Shown here piece after piece: positions 166 to 14,962 of a stretch of DNA of 14,962 bases (position 1 is its first letter; the number at the start of each line of letters is the position of its first letter). Location of the stretch: IMG/VR virus record IMGVR_UViG_2529293000_000008; one strand, written 5' to 3'. The position numbers and the translations under genes are program-made. Below the pieces are notes generated by a model. That model had not been told where the DNA came from. It ran no database searches and saw nothing but the letters and a program-made list of their open reading frames with translations. The DNA is from a virus. Lineage: Duplodnaviria > Heunggongvirae > Uroviricota > Caudoviricetes.

Positions 166-344
166 TTTAATTAAATAATTAACACCGCAAAAAGTGCCAA
201 AAATCGCAAAATGACTACACCAGTGACTACACCGTTCGGTGCACTGTATGAAACAACGTGGAACAAATAGACACAAGAAATATACAGGCGGATCATCTTT
301 CCAGGGGGAAGCACACCAATTCATGAGGGGCGTTAATGTCGATA

Positions 345-3160: not shown

Positions 3161-3282
3161 GCTTATTTTTCGTCAGATTATTTTTCAAAAAATTCCCGTG
3201 CATAAAAATTTGAGGAGGCGTTCGGTGCCCGGCGGGGTCGGGTTTGTCCTGAAAACGCCCCCCACCCCGCCATACAGCCTCA

Positions 3283-3465
3283 TCAGCGATTGCGGAAACA
3301 TTCCATAACCTCGCGGTCACGGTCGGTTAATCGCTTCGCTGTGATGCGTTCTGCGCGTCCTGACGCTTTATCTTTATGCCCTGTTTCCTGTGTCTTCCAT
3401 GCGTCACGCTGCCTTATAAGTCCACGGATAAGGCGGTTTTGTTCCCGCTCATTCATCAGCGTCAT
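3283..3465 (-). CDS. Possible small basic protein (about 60 aa) between HNH and TerS
   Basis: Internal ATG of the 3283..3687 ORF overlapping the HNH stop; Arg/Lys-rich; weak or no Shine-Dalgarno, so the call is tentative. Confidence 0.25.
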   Translation of the reverse strand: MTLMNEREQNRLIRGLIRQRDAWKTQETGHKDKASGRAERITAKRLTDRDREVMECFRNR

Positions 3466-6338: not shown

Positions 6339-7496
6339 TTAATCGTCGTCCTGTGGCAGTTCCAGAATCTTGATCGCGTTCGAATCCACCACGCCACCGC
6401 CTAAATATTTCTGCGTGAAAATTTTGATGAAGCCCGGCTCTGTGAGGTTGTCCGGTCTGGTGCGAACACCTGTTTCGTGATCAACAATGTAGTAACCGCG
6501 TTTGAAGTCACCCAGGGCAATAACGTTATCAGGCATAAACTCCAGATATTCGACCGGAAGGCCCAGCAACGTATCAGGATCACCCGCCTGTAAACGGTCG
6601 CGCCAGATGTAATCACCGTTCGCGTTCTTCACCTTCTGAAGTTTTGCCGCCGTCGTGGAGTTAACCACCCAGACCGCGTTTTTGCGGTATTTTTTACGTA
6701 ATGCAAATTTCAGGTCGATCAGCGGGTCCGCAGATGTCCACGCCAGAGATTCGGAAGGTTTAATTACCTGCAACGTACCAAAATCACGCTCTTTGTCGTT
6801 CTTCTCTGCACGGGGTACGGATAAAAAACCTTTTGCTTTTTTGTCACCGTCGCCCACAACCAGATCGCTTTCTTCGGTTTCCGTGAAGGTGTCGCCAATC
6901 TCACCCGTCAGCCATGAAAGGATGTCCACATCGGAAAAATCCACGATTTCCTGTGTGGTGCGCGGGTACGCATAGACCGGATACAGCTTAATGCTCACCT
7001 CGTTAATCTGCGGGGTGCTGGTCTGTTCGCGTGTCTTACCCTCTTCACCGTGGTTAACGGTCGCACCGCCAGCGGAAACAAGCTGCTTAAACTCGTTGCT
7101 GCTGATTTTCTTCACGGTACAGATGCGGCGCATGGTGGATTCATCCGTCAGCATTCGCATGATTTCGGTGTTCAGTTCGGGGATAACGGTATAACCACCA
7201 TCAGCGGGAACGCCTGTACTTAATGCGCGGGTTTCACCTGTCAGAATGTAGTTGCGTAGTTCTGCGGGGTCAGTGGTCTGGCTGCTTTTACCTGGCTTGC
7301 TGCGCTCTTCGTCTGCAATGGCTTCAAGGCGGGAAATGTCTTTATCGAGGGATTCAGCTTTAGCGCGTAATTCGTCAAATTTTGCGCCCTCAGCATCGTT
7401 AAGACTGCGGTTTTCTTTTTCCGCGTTCTCCAGCATGTCGCGCATCTGATTTTTAATGGCGGTTTTCTGCTGGCGTAATTCGATTATTCTCGGCAT
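6339..7496 (-). CDS. Major capsid protein (HK97 fold) with N-terminal coiled-coil delta/scaffold domain
   Basis: Start taken at ATG 7496 (MPRIIELRQQ...); the track ORF extends to a GTG at 7544; N-terminal charged coiled-coil region followed by capsid-like body. Confidence 0.9.
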   Translation of the reverse strand: MPRIIELRQQKTAIKNQMRDMLENAEKENRSLNDAEGAKFDELRAKAESLDKDISRLEAIADEERSKPGKSSQTTDPAELRNYILTGETRALSTGVPADGGYTVIPELNTEIMRMLTDESTMRRICTVKKISSNEFKQLVSAGGATVNHGEEGKTREQTSTPQINEVSIKLYPVYAYPRTTQEIVDFSDVDILSWLTGEIGDTFTETEESDLVVGDGDKKAKGFLSVPRAEKNDKERDFGTLQVIKPSESLAWTSADPLIDLKFALRKKYRKNAVWVVNSTTAAKLQKVKNANGDYIWRDRLQAGDPDTLLGLPVEYLEFMPDNVIALGDFKRGYYIVDHETGVRTRPDNLTEPGFIKIFTQKYLGGGVVDSNAIKILELPQDDD

Positions 7497-7575
7497 AAAA
7501 AAAGTCCTGGGGTTAAGTAAGGAACTCCAGGACGCGGCAAACACTCAACCGTTTTTCATAAGGAAATCAGTAATC

Positions 7576-7625
7576 GCACCGATCGTTTTCCCGCCTGGTA
7601 ATGAATATTGGCGAGCACATTAACA
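7576..7625. promoter_or_regulatory. Long inverted repeat in the region upstream of the capsid operon
   Basis: ttttcccgcctggtaatg (7576-7593) and cattaacaggcgggaaaa (7608-7625) are reverse complements with one mismatch, separated by 14 bp. Confidence 0.4.
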
Positions 7626-7754
7626 GGCGGGAAAATGGCCCCAGCGTCCTGGCACCACGGGCGAGAATAATCATGATTCAGGTCGGGTAAAATATGCCGT
7701 TCCGGTCAGCGAGCAACGTGGAACAACCACGAACAAATAATTTACAAAACATGA

Positions 7755-7777
7755 CAAAAAGCCGGATTGCTCCGGCT
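7755..7777 (-). terminator. Intrinsic terminator after the PerC-like gene, separating the early/replication operon from the head operon
   Basis: Minus-strand RNA forms agccgga-gcaa-tccggct followed by UUUUU; located 7 nt downstream of the stop at 7784. Confidence 0.5.
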
Positions 7778-7783
7778 GTGTGA

Positions 7784-8059
7784 TTATCTGTCCTGGTAAT
7801 TTCGCCATATTTCATCGCTTACACCATCTATACCCATTTCAGCATAAGTGCGATCTACTGCCTTTCTCAGGTCTCCGAAGTTATCCGGCGGCTCCGGTGG
7901 CTTCTGTGCCTTCCTGGAACATTCCAGCCGTCGCATCGTAACCTGATGCCGTTCCTTGTCTGTCTCCACCAGCAGCATGACTTCACCCCATCGCGCCGAC
8001 GCCCTCCGGTAAAAGCCTTTCGCCTCGAGTTCTTCCGCTATGCGGTCATGTACCATCGC
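7784..8059 (-). CDS. PerC-family-like small transcriptional regulator
   Basis: Start chosen at internal ATG 8059 with strong GAGGGGG Shine-Dalgarno right after the SSB stop; MVHDRIAEELEAKGFYRRASARWGEV resembles the PerC/Pch signature as I recall it (not searched). Confidence 0.5.
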   Translation of the reverse strand, partial: AMVHDRIAEELEAKGFYRRASARWGEVMLLVETDKERHQVTMRRLECSRKAQKPPEPPDNFGDLRKAVDRTYAEMGIDGVSDEIWRNYQDR

Positions 8060-8780: not shown

Positions 8781-9006
8781 GTCTACCTTATCTACCTTAC
8801 TGGCTCTCATGCCAGTAATGGCGCGGCTTTCAGCGGGGTAGAGTGCTTTTATCCACTATCTACCCCGTATCTACCTCCCTGTCTGATTCAGGTAAAATCA
8901 GGTAGAGAGGGTAGATAGTAGGTAGACAGTGAAAAAAGGCTGTCTACCTAAGTTAATATACTGAATTAAATGTATTTTTCTTTACTCAGGTAGACAGGGT
9001 AGACAG
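8781..9006. repeat. Iteron array and AT-rich tract; putative origin of replication
   Basis: At least 11 copies of the heptamer GGTAGA(C/T/G) or its complement in both orientations: 8781-8787, 8790-8796, 8837-8843, 8858-8864, 8869-8875, 8901-8907, 8910-8916, 8921-8927, 8942-8948, and tandem GGTAGACAG at 8989-8997 and 8998-9006; AT-rich stretch 8950-8985; immediately 3' of the primase-helicase gene. Confidence 0.65.
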
Positions 9007-9019
9007 CCATTGCAAAAAA

Positions 9020-10774
9020 TTATAAAAACGCGTCGCAATCGTCTGTTGTTATTGCGTTAGTCTGCGTTACTCCCTTAACTTTCCGCGTAATATATTCATG
9101 TCCGTAAACTTTCGCGGCTGGCTTCATAGCCTTGCCAAAGTCATTTACGTTTAGCGGTTTGCTCCTGCCTGCGTACGCCATAAACGCCAGATAGACGCGG
9201 TAAAGGCTGTTTCTGGTCGTGTACTTCACTGAATCGCCACCGCCGCCCATCATCAGGCCGCGTGCTTCCTCCAGAAAATTCAGGAACTGGCAAAACTCAA
9301 TAACCGGATCCGTCTGTTGCTTTATTGCCAGTGCTTCATCACCGTCACGCTGTTCAATGAGTAAAGCCCGTGCCTTTTCAGGGTCGGCAAAGTTCGCCAG
9401 CAAGCGGCGGATAATCACAGGGATTTCAGCCGCGATCTTTTCCGGTAGCTCCCTGTCTTTTTCTGCCTCGCTTACGATGTTATCGAACCGGAATATCACC
9501 CGACGACGTGCCACACCTCCGGCCCGTTCGGTGAATATCATCGGATTGTTATTGGTTGCCAGCACCACCGCCCTGATTACCGCCGTAAAACGCTTTTCAT
9601 ATTTCGGGTTAATTTCCACGGGGTCGCCGCCCGTGATTTTCTTGATGCCCGTTCCTTCGCCTGTATATTTCGGCTGGTCTGCCAGGACGATAAGACGACT
9701 CCCGACAACCTGCGCACGCCCACCAGCATCATCAAGCGATGTCATTTCAGCGCTTACCGTGTTCTGTTTCCCTGCCAGAAGGCTGGCTATGTGTGTGAAT
9801 GTACTTTTACCGCTCCCGCCGTCTCCGGTGGCCTCAATAAACATCTGCCAGTCGTACCGGTTCGCCATAATCATGTACAGCGCGGCACATATACGCATCA
9901 TCTTGCGCGGGTCTTTTCCGGCTGCGTGCTCAAGCCATTTATGAAAGTTTGGCGCGTTATCGCGGATGTTCTCCCCTGGTGCTGGTGGCGTGTACTCAAT
10001 GCCGTTGTGCGTGGTGATCCAGTTCTCCGGCGTGTGCGGGGAAAATTCCCCCGTTTTCAGGTCAAGCGCACCATTGGCGAACGGCAGCAAATCGCCGGAC
10101 GGCTCGCCCATTGGTTCGGCAATAACTTTTAACGCTTCCACGGCGTTATTGATTACGCGCTTGCTGAAAGTGGCCCTGTGCTCTGAATAGATCGCCACCA
10201 TTTCGCGGCTAAGTTCCATTGTGCTGACCGGACACCATACCCCGCCGCGCCATACGTGAACGATTTCACTTTCAGGATGTACGCAAACGCCATCAAAGCG
10301 ATCGGCAAGCAGCTGCGCGCGCTCACTGTCCGCCATCTGCGAAAGTTGCGCCTTTTGCTTTACCGGAAGCTCAATGACCAGACCATCAGAAAGATTCTGG
10401 CGCTCACGGGCCAGATATTCGCGCCAGTTCTCCACCTTCTGACCGTGCATACCCTCAGGATAAAAATTTGCATCCTGTACGCCTGCCGCCGCCAGCTTCT
10501 GGCCAATCGCCTTTATCATTACTGGCGCAAGATATCCGGCCCTGAATATGCGCACGGATTTTCTGCCTTCCGGCACAATTTGCAGCTTATCCAGTTCTGA
10601 TAACTGCTGCTCCCCAAGCCACACAGGAGGCTCATTATCTCCGGCCATACGCGCATCATGTTCCTGCCATTGTTTCGCGTGTGCCCAGGCATCACTACCC
10701 GCAAAAATAATGACTTCTGTTCCTTTGTGTTTTATGCCGCGTGACTGCTGTTTTACGTTCGGTGCCAGTTTCAT
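9020..10774 (-). CDS. Replication initiator: P4/D5-type primase-helicase (Pri-Rep)
   Basis: 584 aa with Walker A GDGGSGKST and a Walker B-like RLIVLADQP segment in the C-terminal half, as in P4-alpha/D5-like helicases; ATGA coupling with the upstream ORF; AGGGGT Shine-Dalgarno. Confidence 0.85.
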   Translation of the reverse strand: MKLAPNVKQQSRGIKHKGTEVIIFAGSDAWAHAKQWQEHDARMAGDNEPPVWLGEQQLSELDKLQIVPEGRKSVRIFRAGYLAPVMIKAIGQKLAAAGVQDANFYPEGMHGQKVENWREYLARERQNLSDGLVIELPVKQKAQLSQMADSERAQLLADRFDGVCVHPESEIVHVWRGGVWCPVSTMELSREMVAIYSEHRATFSKRVINNAVEALKVIAEPMGEPSGDLLPFANGALDLKTGEFSPHTPENWITTHNGIEYTPPAPGENIRDNAPNFHKWLEHAAGKDPRKMMRICAALYMIMANRYDWQMFIEATGDGGSGKSTFTHIASLLAGKQNTVSAEMTSLDDAGGRAQVVGSRLIVLADQPKYTGEGTGIKKITGGDPVEINPKYEKRFTAVIRAVVLATNNNPMIFTERAGGVARRRVIFRFDNIVSEAEKDRELPEKIAAEIPVIIRRLLANFADPEKARALLIEQRDGDEALAIKQQTDPVIEFCQFLNFLEEARGLMMGGGGDSVKYTTRNSLYRVYLAFMAYAGRSKPLNVNDFGKAMKPAAKVYGHEYITRKVKGVTQTNAITTDDCDAFL

Positions 10775-13370: not shown

Positions 13371-13652
13371 TATTGCCCCCTTTCGTTTCTTAAAGAGTTA
13401 TTTCGTGTTCTATTGCGTTGGGATGTGTCTGATTGTGTCAGGATGATTCAGAGTTGGCAAATGTTGAGGTCGTATGGTTTACAGAAACAGGAATAATCAG
13501 GATAAAATCATTTAAATTCATGTTAATACAAAGGCATAAAATATTGTTTCATGCCTTTTTTATCGCTATTTAAAGAGTGATTCGCTAGTGTATAAAAAAC
13601 CAGTAACACATTAAAAATCAGCTACTTATAAATCCGTACACTTTTTCGCCTC

Positions 13653-13727
13653 TTGTTCGTAGTTGTTCCGCATTGTTGCTCATTGTTGCATGTTGTATCT
13701 GTTCGCATATCCAGTATGCGCATACTG
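13653..13727. promoter_or_regulatory. Helically phased TTGTT repeats plus a 16 bp perfect palindrome between int and alpA
   Basis: TTGTT at about 13653, 13663, 13674, 13684 and 13692 (near 10 bp spacing), including tandem cattgttgc at 13671-13690; palindrome CAGTATGCGCATACTG at 13712-13727, 18 nt downstream of the int stop. Confidence 0.4.
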
Positions 13728-13744: not shown

Positions 13745-14962
13745 TTATTTTCTTCTGGCTACTGGTAGCGTGGTTACGTTTTCATGTGTTCCCGCCAGTA
13801 TCCCTAACCGCTCCGTCCACATATCCAGCGCATTGCGTTTAGCATCCAGATAACGGGAATGATTATAAACTCGCTGCATTCCTGGCATCTGATGACCTGT
13901 AAGCTGCTCCACGACATGCGGATCAACGCCTAAATCGTTCAGCATGGTTGTAAAGGTGCGCCGGATGTCATGCAGTGACCAGTGAGGATGATTAAGCCTC
14001 CTGTGCGCTAATCTTCCATACTGCGATACGCTGGCCTCCTGTTTCGCTTCCCCCAGCAATAAGCCCGTGTGCCTGTTCTGCTCCACCAGCTGCGTGACGA
14101 ACGGCAGGATCGCTTCCGGTATGGGCCGGAATATTGCGACCTTCGTTTTGCTGTGCTCCTTCGGAACGGTCCATAGCATTTCCGTAAAATCCCACTCCCC
14201 GATCTCCGATAGCCTCAGTTCTACCGTCCTGGCTCCGAAGACAATCAGGAGGCGGATTAACGCGACGTAGTAAGGGGAAAATATTTTTTTGTCCAGTGCC
14301 TGCAATAATTCGCCAAGTTCTTTGTTACTTAAGACACGTTCGCTTATATCCGGTTTTTTCCCAACGTCCGCCACGTTCAGATCGTCCAGAACGTTGCTGA
14401 TTGCATAGCGCCGCCTACGGCAGAACTTAAGCGCCTGTTTGCACGCCTGTAGCACGAATCCGGCAGTAACAGGCGTTCGCTTTGCCACCTGGTCAAAACA
14501 GGCCAGCCAGTGCCGTAGCTCGCATTTATCCAGCGGCATAGCACCAATCTGCTGTATTACGTGATTATTAAGTCGCCTTTTCAGGGCGATATAATCCACG
14601 CGGTTTTCCTTTACGTAATACTCAAGCCAGTAGGTGAGCGCATCGCCAACCGTTACGGGCTTTAACGCTTCCTGTACGGTGTAATTCATCTCATGACGTG
14701 GATTTTTCCCCTCAGCCAGCCATGTGCGACACTGTGCGGCTTTTTCCCTGGCTGCTTTCAGGCTCAGATCAGGATAACTTCCCAGCTTAATGCGTTCGGG
14801 TCGTGTCTCCCTTCCCGTTCCGGCCCTGTATGTGAAATACCAGGTCAATTTCCCTGATGTTAAATATTTCACGCTCAGGTTTCCGCCATCACTATAAAAC
14901 GTGTTTTTCTCCGCTGGCTTACCATGAAGTTTCCTTAGCAAGGTATCGCTCAGTTTGTTCAT
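13745..14962 (-). CDS. int: Tyrosine recombinase / integrase (P4-like)
   Basis: 405 aa; N-terminal arm-binding-like region (LTSGKLTWYFTYRAG...LGSYPDLSLKAAREKA) and C-terminal catalytic region with HDIRRT and RVYNHSRY (His/Arg/Tyr signature); start codon lies at the window edge. Confidence 0.92.
   Translation of the reverse strand: MNKLSDTLLRKLHGKPAEKNTFYSDGGNLSVKYLTSGKLTWYFTYRAGTGRETRPERIKLGSYPDLSLKAAREKAAQCRTWLAEGKNPRHEMNYTVQEALKPVTVGDALTYWLEYYVKENRVDYIALKRRLNNHVIQQIGAMPLDKCELRHWLACFDQVAKRTPVTAGFVLQACKQALKFCRRRRYAISNVLDDLNVADVGKKPDISERVLSNKELGELLQALDKKIFSPYYVALIRLLIVFGARTVELRLSEIGEWDFTEMLWTVPKEHSKTKVAIFRPIPEAILPFVTQLVEQNRHTGLLLGEAKQEASVSQYGRLAHRRLNHPHWSLHDIRRTFTTMLNDLGVDPHVVEQLTGHQMPGMQRVYNHSRYLDAKRNALDMWTERLGILAGTHENVTTLPVARRK

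Follow-up and report, generated by a model that had tools for sequence, protein, structure and literature searches.

Recombination directionality factors (RDFs) recognise repeats in direct orientation, spaced by one helical turn, in att sites as well as in promoters (PMC7498355), and one of them, the Cox protein of phage P2, also activates a promoter of the satellite P4 (reference 41 of PMC7498355). In the phage-inducible chromosomal islands (PICIs), published work has found alpA to be required for induction and excision and to be under positive autoregulation. Overexpression of this gene was used to drive the reproduction of the island EcCIEDL933, and the capsid-forming PICIs (cf-PICIs), which have capsids of their own, form and release them tail-less without a helper phage (bioRxiv 10.1101/2025.02.11.637232). 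In the literature that we searched, the promoter, the boxes and the leader of cf-PICI packaging operons are undescribed, and nothing was found on how the operon is switched on or on the binding sites of AlpA. Here we analyse the control region that precedes the major capsid gene in a cf-PICI of the EcCIEDL933 kind, contained in the virus record IMGVR_UViG_2529293000_000008 (14,962 nt; this whole stretch is called the window). All the genes of the window are on the minus strand, and the region under study is the 287-nt gap between the perC-like gene and the capsid gene (7497-7783).

We conclude that this gap, read on the minus strand, is probably a self-contained control region of the packaging operon, consisting of a terminator for the upstream genes, an own promoter that AlpA would activate and a leader RNA that would tune expression. 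Taken together, leader, promoter and boxes are a new, well-conserved example of known regulatory designs. For the comparison with relatives, the capsid protein and the invariant upstream motif were used as queries, which gave about 100 loci (single ones are designated by L and a number). These represent 68 distinct upstream regions and come from E. coli, Shigella, Citrobacter, Erwinia, Rosenbergiella, Gilliamella and IMG/VR viral contigs. Two types of leader are contrasted here, that of the window and a second one, called the other type; 56 distinct leaders were folded, 38 were aligned, and 26 were aligned with MAFFT. A BLAST search of the region against 50,697 phage records (INPHARED) found no homologous leader.

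The predicted promoter of the packaging operon

The upstream (replication/early) block ends with the perC-like gene, and 6 nt past its stop at 7784 there is a stem-loop, AGCCGGAGCAATCCGGCT (7777-7760), followed by TTTTTG (7759-7755). With 7 pairs, five of them G-C, and a 4-nt loop, this element is predicted to be an intrinsic (Rho-independent) terminator. Terminator-like sites as such are not above chance (3 in 1.6 kb vs 1.8 expected); the relatives, in turn, conserve this one. Islands of the EDL933 type have the terminator in two copies around an inserted gene, and other islands present a different terminator hairpin in the same place. The proposal of an earlier note, made from the letters of the window, that the upstream operon ends in a terminator here was borne out by the stem-loop with its T run and by this conservation. 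The insert of the EDL933-type islands (L001 1546-1930, aligned to window 7783-7778) is 355 bp long, is located between perC and the capsid control region and consists of a 74-aa open reading frame (ORF) between the two terminator copies; the window is without it. Small ORFs homologous to the 74-aa ORF were observed in the same place in the islands of Rosenbergiella and Gilliamella.

The homology between the packaging modules of divergent islands starts exactly at TTTTGTAAATTATTTGT, an invariant block located just past the terminator. Upstream of this block the content varies, and there can be perC with its terminator, a small ORF of 74-86 aa, another terminator or a divergent gene. An ORF in divergent orientation adjoins the block in 20 of the 60 distinct upstream contexts, which excludes read-through into the capsid gene in these. 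Since the homology of the modules starts past the terminator and the upstream side is variable or divergent, the operon needs, and probably carries, its own promoter. The same had been claimed in the earlier note, and the conserved -35 and -10 elements described below agree with it.

The distance from the invariant block to P1, the first hairpin of the leader, is fixed at 88-90 nt. Among 13 divergent upstream types, only three features are conserved between both points: the block itself, a 10-nt periodic TTC/TAC signal and TTTAC-N16-TATcTT. In L084 and L139, the only sigma-70-like matches are TTTACA-16-TATGTT and TTTACA-16-TATCTT, respectively, both with 9 of 12 consensus positions and both called by the promoter scan. 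The corresponding elements of the window predict that transcription of the capsid operon starts at 7656-7658, at about 7657. Other identities were considered by eye for the same sequences and discarded: the invariant block matches an integration host factor (IHF) site in at most 7 of 9 core positions, the invariant block as a -10 (TAAATT) is without a conserved -35, and a sigma-54 promoter at P1 has the GG/GC spacing off by one.

Small hairpins with a T run were also observed near the -35. In the window, such an element is located at 7700-7714, just upstream of or overlapping the -35, and is weak; in leaders of the L003 type it appears about 35-60 nt past the invariant block and was called terminator-like in L021, and islands whose boxes are of the TAC type present a clear CCCCUG...CGGGGG-U-run hairpin in that place. 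In addition, the -10 region (7672-7662) is perfectly complementary over 11 nt to capsid codons 2-5 (7492-7482). In a read-through RNA this pairing would close the whole leader and mask the coding start. As a conserved long-range helix it was rejected, since it overlaps the -10 and is not kept in the other leader type; because of that overlap, it is absent from the RNA that would derive from the promoter.

This last complementarity, which is possible only in a read-through RNA, would favour an operon without a separate promoter, transcribed by read-through of the perC terminator and of the hairpin before the capsid AUG (P3), as could be brought about by a processive antiterminator that loads further upstream. 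The presence of two terminator-like elements in series points in the same direction, and the AlpA protein of Pseudomonas aeruginosa is a Q-like antiterminator (PMC9371919). However, about a third of the upstream contexts hold a divergent gene, the conserved module starts past the terminator, the -35 and the -10 are conserved, and leaders of the other type lack the 11-nt complement. The P. aeruginosa AlpA does not serve as a model either, since it is a different type of protein with a different site: it has more than 140 aa and a Q-like fold and acts at a GGGACG located between -35 and -10, whereas the AlpA of the window has 62 aa and the spacer of its promoter, CGACCTGAATCATGAT, does not contain GGGACG. 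With the repeats located upstream of -54 as well, an antitermination site of the Q type or of the P. aeruginosa AlpA type was discarded. We consider it unlikely that the operon depends on read-through.

Tandem boxes and the candidate activator

The predicted promoter is preceded by five direct repeats with a period of 10-11 bp (array 1), which extend from about -100 to -54 with respect to the predicted start and whose first two boxes form the invariant block. Similar repeats are found at two other places in the window, upstream of alpA (array 2, conserved in L172 and L182) and close to the island end that is distal to int (array 3). Arrays 3 and 1 have in common the 13-mer TTGTTCCACGTTG. When TTGT-N6-TTGT-N6-TTG was searched with at most one mismatch, 8 matches were obtained in the window vs 0.34 expected, all of them within the three arrays; in other islands, GTTC-N6-GTTC pairs are present 32 times vs about 11 expected, often upstream of alpA. 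The window thus presents what is seen at operators of the RDF type, that is, at least three direct repeats one helical turn apart, with sites both in a presumed att arm and at predicted promoters, in an element that encodes a small excisionase-type protein and in which the sequence of the site follows the variant of the protein, the latter being a correlation only.

As to this correlation, the presumed recognition-helix variant of AlpA predicts the type of box in 21 of 22 islands. AlpA proteins with SRSSRWK go with GTAC/TTTAC/TTAC boxes, those with SRSTRWY with GTTC/GTTTTC/TGTTTG and those with CRTTRYMM with GTTC/nTTC/GTTC, and the AlpA of the window type goes with TTGTTC, present three times. 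The match between AlpA and box persists where one type of leader is joined to different types of AlpA (L188 and L157 vs L107 and L179). Array 1 is therefore a predicted operator of AlpA, of the RDF type, and AlpA would be the best candidate activator of the capsid promoter, on evidence that is correlative. Among the factors that the earlier note had named, AlpA is the one that gained in weight, while the PerC-like protein is unlikely as the cognate activator, since among the 16 islands that keep the control region, 14 have no PerC in the part that was fetched. As sites for the activator, the direct repeats at about -100 to -54, which that note did not mention, are better candidates than the inverted repeat and the hairpin that it had proposed.

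Some observations made upstream of alpA in other islands are added here. In L079, the stretch 3185-3330 contains CACGTAATGA / CACCTAACAG five times and TGGTTCAT-type boxes 4-5 times with a period of 10-11 bp; these tandem arrays may be further sets of operators or iterons. The Rfam int-alpA RNA motif RF02996 matches the int-alpA region of L108 (1236-1302) with 51 bits, above its gathering score. The int-alpA spacer of the window gave no match with RF02996, and array 2 is found there instead.

The leader RNA

The predicted transcript begins with a leader of about 160 nt, in which the hairpins P1, P2, P2' and P3 precede the capsid AUG at 7496. In the minimum free energy (MFE) folds, for which each leader was folded separately, P1, P2 and P3 are all present in 56 of 56 distinct leaders. 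The leader of the window is strongly structured (z = -4.6), and in leaders of its type the sense fold is 7-15 kcal/mol more stable than the antisense one. P1 is the 5'-terminal hairpin. Its GACG loop is invariant in the 38 aligned leaders, and three of its four inner pairs present double changes between the types (CCAG/CUGG in the window vs CUCA/UGAG in the other). P2' is a small hairpin of window-type leaders only; on the opposite strand, C-A mismatches would take the place of its three G-U pairs.

The family that we define here is made up of leaders with a P1 with GACG loop, an adjacent long P2 and, before the AUG, a P3 with CGUC in its 5' strand, and the leader of the window has all three. 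Furthermore, a covariance model built from the other type only, run with the filters off, placed P1 and P2 of the window in register (7658-7548, minus strand; 19.4 bits, E ~8e-6 for 601 nt). A scan of the leader of the window and of five relatives against Rfam 15 gave no match with E <= 1. A mini-ORF, AUG AAA AAC GGU UGA (MKNG; 7559-7545, minus strand), ends about 10 nt before P3. Neither L060 and L072 nor leaders of the other type have it; it was discarded as an attenuation sensor and is probably a chance occurrence.

P2 corresponds to the inverted repeat that the earlier note had placed at 7576-7625. The repeat exists as described, with 18-bp arms and one mismatch, but its coordinates were off by 10. 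The arms are at 7586-7603 and 7618-7635, with 17 of 18 nt complementary and a loop of 14 nt. The window contains no second repeat of this kind, and none arose in 200 shuffles. Folded as RNA, P2 has -23.5 kcal/mol and z = -6.5. In the relatives P2 appears as at least five unrelated sequences, GUCCACCCGG..., GGCCGUUUAA..., GGCCGUCAG..., GCCGCCUGAC... and, in the window, UUUCCCGCCUG..., and each variant closes a stem of 9-17 bp, with z from -3.6 to -7.5 in 9 of 11 sequence-unrelated variants. Covariation was evaluated in the MAFFT alignment of the 26 leaders, which is not fitted to the structure and from which RNAalifold recovered the stem. In the basal stem, seven of nine pairs have changes on both sides and 98.3% of the cells are paired. 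The covariation score was 0.279 vs 0.134 in shuffles (0 of 500), and it was at most 0.105 when the partners were slid. The cells that are not Watson-Crick are 15 G-U vs 3 A-C, an excess that points to the RNA of the sense strand. Judged from these sequence comparisons, P2 is a conserved helix of the leader RNA in which the pairing is kept rather than the sequence, and not a docking site for a protein.

The earlier note had interpreted this repeat, together with the hairpin at 7504-7533 (P3), as DNA sites of a late activator or antiterminator, perhaps encoded by the helper, that would set helper specificity. The hairpin was found as claimed, with its 7-bp stem, only that it lies outside the range 7545-7783 given for the control region. 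A near-perfect 18-bp palindrome suits a dimeric DNA-binding protein, conservation within the window-type lineage (L072, L060) is higher in the arms than in the loop or the 3' flank, and the P2 variants, which are swapped between near-identical flanks, could be specificity cassettes. However, both elements come after the predicted start and so belong to the transcribed leader; counted from the conserved promoter, the repeat occupies about +22 to +72. The pairing is maintained by unrelated sequences, by G-U wobbles and by nested sub-hairpins that have compensatory changes of their own, which argues against the recognition of the repeat as DNA, and the homologous region is present in no INPHARED phage. 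A factor from the helper also conflicts with the published tail-less capsids, which are made without a helper phage (bioRxiv 10.1101/2025.02.11.637232). All this makes it quite improbable that the repeat and the hairpin are DNA sites.

An invariant P1 beside a variable P2 could also be the two halves of a cos, with the nicking site in P1 and the binding site of TerS in P2. In 26 leaders of the other type P1 is invariant and partly two-fold symmetric, and P2 is variable, as expected if it tracked the specificity of TerS. Against this, the pairing in P2 and in the nested hairpins is kept through G-U on one strand only, P1 and P3 have in common an invariant complementary tetranucleotide, and the 288-nt gap between the HNH gene and terS contains a G-rich segment at about 3230-3275. 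This gap (3161-3448, non-coding) presents GGCGGGGTGGGGGGCG...CCCGACCCCGCCGGGC followed by T-rich DNA, and its G-rich part is likely the cos site of the island. In HK97-like phages, cos is placed in the gap between HNH and terS. A cos formed by P1 and P2 is thus a very remote prospect.

P3 has a perfect stem of 7 bp, which extends to 11 pairs with one mismatch, and a loop of 8 nt. Since chance alone would produce about one hairpin of this size per window, the weight of P3 rests on its position and conservation. P3 is found just before the AUG in all the leaders, and its 3' arm holds the sole Shine-Dalgarno-like sequence, AGGA (7508-7505). In the window type the hairpin contains AGGA and is followed by U7-8. 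The capsid start itself is conserved in the relatives (MPRIIELRQQ or MKKLLELRQQ). The terminator scan passed over the stem of the window, which includes an A-C mismatch; in L021 and L024 a CC-to-UU variant brings the stem to 11 bp without a mismatch, one of the pairs being G-U, and that of L021 was called terminator-like (11 pairs, T7).

An alternative pairing is offered by the 5' half and loop of P1, CCAGGACGC, which is complementary in 9 of 9 positions to GCGUCCUGG in the 5' arm of P3. The GACG of the P1 loop and the CGUC of the P3 5' strand are invariant in 38 of 38 aligned leaders, and in the other type the complementarity extends in the opposite way, AGACGUGA with UCACGUCU. Folds in which the P1/P3 pairing was enforced free the AUG region and, in three leader types, cost 5-7 kcal/mol relative to the MFE. 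CCAGGACGC/GCGUCCUGG is thus a candidate anti-terminator or anti-sequestor pairing, and we put forward as a hypothesis that P1 and P3 would form a switch.

The hairpins could also serve only to stabilise or process the mRNA, without any switch, with P1 as a shield from RNase E and P2 as a site of RNase III. P1 begins at the predicted +1, P2 of the window has 17 of 18 bp paired and the leader is strongly structured. In the relatives, however, the basal stems of P2 have only 9-13 bp, which is short for RNase III, and the invariant GACG loop with its invariant CGUC partner suggests a specific interaction. A role limited to stability or processing, which is compatible with the terminator and with the AlpA-dependent promoter proposed above, seems to us improbable. 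At the other extreme, the P1-P2-P3 leader could represent a new class of cis-regulatory RNA switch of cf-PICI capsid operons, with the GACG hairpin read by a protein. This idea is tentative and we regard it as rather doubtful. If it were true, the reader would be a factor of the island, an autoregulating capsid or scaffold domain, or RNA polymerase, which would flip the P1/P3 pairing and gate termination and translation for the packaging operon as a whole, and this could explain how satellites produce capsids without a helper.

The features, how far they are conserved, the covariation and the recurring arrays are results of computation; from them we infer the transcription start, the binding of AlpA and the P1/P3 switch, and the control region would work as follows. 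Transcription of the perC block would end at the terminator. AlpA, of 62 aa, would bind array 1 cooperatively and activate a weak sigma-70 promoter, and it would act likewise at array 2, in front of alpA, and at array 3, in the int-distal att arm. The leader would then fold into its hairpins, among them P2 as an architectural helix in which the pairing would matter and the sequence would not, and P3, which would bury the Shine-Dalgarno sequence and, with U7, would resemble an intrinsic terminator one base before the AUG. If the apical half of P1 paired with the 5' arm of P3 instead, the ribosome site would be freed and the terminator would be lost. In this way, the leader probably sets the yield of capsid per transcript, with termination or translation being tuned.

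Several results speak against one part or another of this mechanism. The window promoter, TTTACC-16-TATTCT, agrees with 8 of 12 consensus positions and was not called, the scan being empty in the window because this value falls below its cut-off of 9. Array 2 is oriented opposite to array 1, and the TAC-type islands have no second array near alpA within the fetched DNA. L084, which carries two alpA paralogues, is the exception to the rule that relates AlpA and box, the correlation could in part come from shared ancestry, and the arm-binding domain of the integrase, instead of AlpA, could bind array 3. Islands whose AlpA proteins share only 45-64% identity have the invariant block in one and the same form; being constant across the variants, the block fits a conserved host factor or a core site shared by all AlpA proteins better than a variant-specific site. 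With regard to the leader, the covariance model of the other type gave no match in the window under default filters, therefore the homology of the window leader rests on architecture and position more than on sequence. The U tract after P3 is found in the window-type leader only, the other type having the hairpin without it, so termination is a lineage-specific addition and cannot be the conserved function. Finally, the P1/P3 duplex showed a modest gain over shuffles (p ~0.02-0.07).

The island and its place among known systems

The positions of the features are collected in Table 1. The genes follow the order integrase, alpA, Icd-like ORF, D5-type primase, single-stranded DNA-binding protein (SSB) and perC, and downstream of the capsid gene there are the prohead protease, portal, head completion, connector, HNH, TerS and TerL genes.

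Table 1. Features of the control region, of the related arrays and of the neighbouring genes in the window
Feature	Position	Strand	Basis or remark
Intrinsic terminator of the upstream block (predicted)	7755-7777	-	terminator scan; conserved in relatives
Array 1: TTGTCA, TTGTAA, TTGTTC, TTGTTC, TTGCTC	7711-7757	-	box starts 7757, 7747, 7736, 7726, 7716
Invariant block TTTTGTAAATTATTTGT, first two boxes of array 1	7733-7749	-	start of the homology of packaging modules
Predicted -35, TTTACC	7686-7691	-	TTTAC conserved in 13 divergent upstream types
Predicted -10, TATTCT, 16-nt spacer	7664-7669	-	conserved columns; promoter matches of relatives
P1, GUGGU-g-CCAG-[GACG]-CUGG-g-GCCAU	7635-7658	-	5'-terminal hairpin; MFE folds of 56 leaders
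P1/P3 alternative pairing (candidate), CCAGGACGC	7644-7652	-	9/9 complementary to GCGUCCUGG, 7535-7527 (P3 5' arm)
P2, inverted repeat with 18-bp arms	7586-7635	-	directly after P1; repeat search, folding, covariation
P2', GAUCGGUG/UACUGAUU	7565-7584	-	window-type leaders only; MFE folds
P3, hairpin before the AUG	7504-7533	-	repeat search, MFE folds
U7 tract (7503-7497) and capsid AUG (7496-7494)	7494-7503	-	directly after P3
Array 2: at least five TTGTTC-type boxes, 10-bp period	13643-13705	+	int-alpA intergenic, 273-335 nt upstream of alpA
Array 3: TTGTGT, TTGTTC, TTGTTT	254-276	-	about 100-140 bp inside the int-distal island end
Integrase gene	13745-14962	-	first in gene order
alpA, 62 aa	13182-13370	-	Pfam Phage_AlpA (PF05930), E = 5e-18; PHROG 2790 'excisionase and transcriptional regulator'
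Icd-like ORF, 342 aa	12096-13124	-	next after alpA
D5-type primase gene	9020-10774	-	followed by SSB in gene order
perC-like gene	7784-8056	-	last of the upstream block; start inferred, mechanical ORF to 8176
Major capsid gene, HK97 type	6339-7496	-	first of the packaging operon; Pfam Phage_capsid, E = 3e-61

The perC ORF matches Pfam PerC with E = 2e-44 over its residues 41-129, and in an EDL933-type relative the RefSeq annotation is a 90-aa PerC. The matches of the 342-aa ORF are confined to its last ~90 residues (the NCBIfam Icd-like cell-division inhibitor domain and PHROG families annotated as 'transcriptional repressor'), homologues with 25-68% identity are present in 15 of 16 related islands, and its true start may be internal. 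Between an 85-aa ORF and the primase gene there is a palindrome of about 98 nt (8844-8941) with repeated GGTAGATA / TATCTACC units, in which the only Rfam matches were miRNA models at chance level, on both strands; this palindrome may serve the island as its replication origin. The island adjoins tqsA, the gene of an autoinducer-2 (AI-2) transporter, and its int-distal end is located at about 138-156: the match to E. coli genomes without the island is confined to 1-137 (tqsA), and that to an O157 island integrated elsewhere begins at 156.

If AlpA, the master regulator, acts as an excisionase-type factor, it would couple excision, its own induction and the activation of the capsid operon through one kind of array, which is a wiring that can be tested. 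The conserved leader RNA, which is outside Rfam, would act after the start of transcription. In addition, the repeat arrays and the leader could be used to mark cf-PICI packaging modules in genomes.

As in the case of Apl of phage 186, Cox of P2 and Vis of P4, which are small proteins that bind tandem repeats cooperatively, the window has the same layout of sites, and at three places. Apl and Cox mostly repress the promoters of the lysis-lysogeny switch, whereas array 1 is located at -100 to -54 of the promoter of structural genes, a position that implies activation. The nearest precedent for an excisionase-type regulator on a late promoter of a satellite is the action of P2 Cox on P4. We know of no RDF for which the box TTGTTC has been described.

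A second comparison can be made with PR'-qut-tR' of lambda, with its Q protein, and with PalpB-tB of P. aeruginosa, with its AlpA, since in both, as here, a terminator-like hairpin close to the promoter comes before a late or lysis operon. The regulator of P. aeruginosa shares the name of the AlpA of the window but, as said above, not its size. Moreover, the sites of Q and of the P. aeruginosa AlpA are between -35 and -10, and these proteins need a sigma-dependent pause and ride the polymerase, whereas the repeats of the window are upstream of -54. The U tract before the AUG is absent from most relatives.

The leader itself resembles attenuators (trp, pyrBI) and translational operators in its predicted exclusive pairings, the P1 and P3 hairpins on the one hand and P1 with the 5' arm of P3 on the other, and resembles attenuators and sequestering leaders in having a Shine-Dalgarno sequence in the stem and a U tract after it. 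Unlike in attenuators, the only mini-ORF of the leader (MKNG) is not conserved, there is no Rfam match and the termination feature is specific to one lineage.

The organization of the operon as a whole recalls operon I of the Staphylococcus aureus pathogenicity islands (SaPIs), which are PICIs of Gram-positive bacteria. Operon I is controlled independently of the replication block by a regulated promoter of its own, repressed by LexA and served by a late activator of the helper. As in operon I, the packaging operon of the cf-PICIs would have its own promoter apart from the replication block. Unlike in operon I, no factor of the helper is required in the cf-PICIs, judging by the published work, and the predicted activator is encoded by the island itself.

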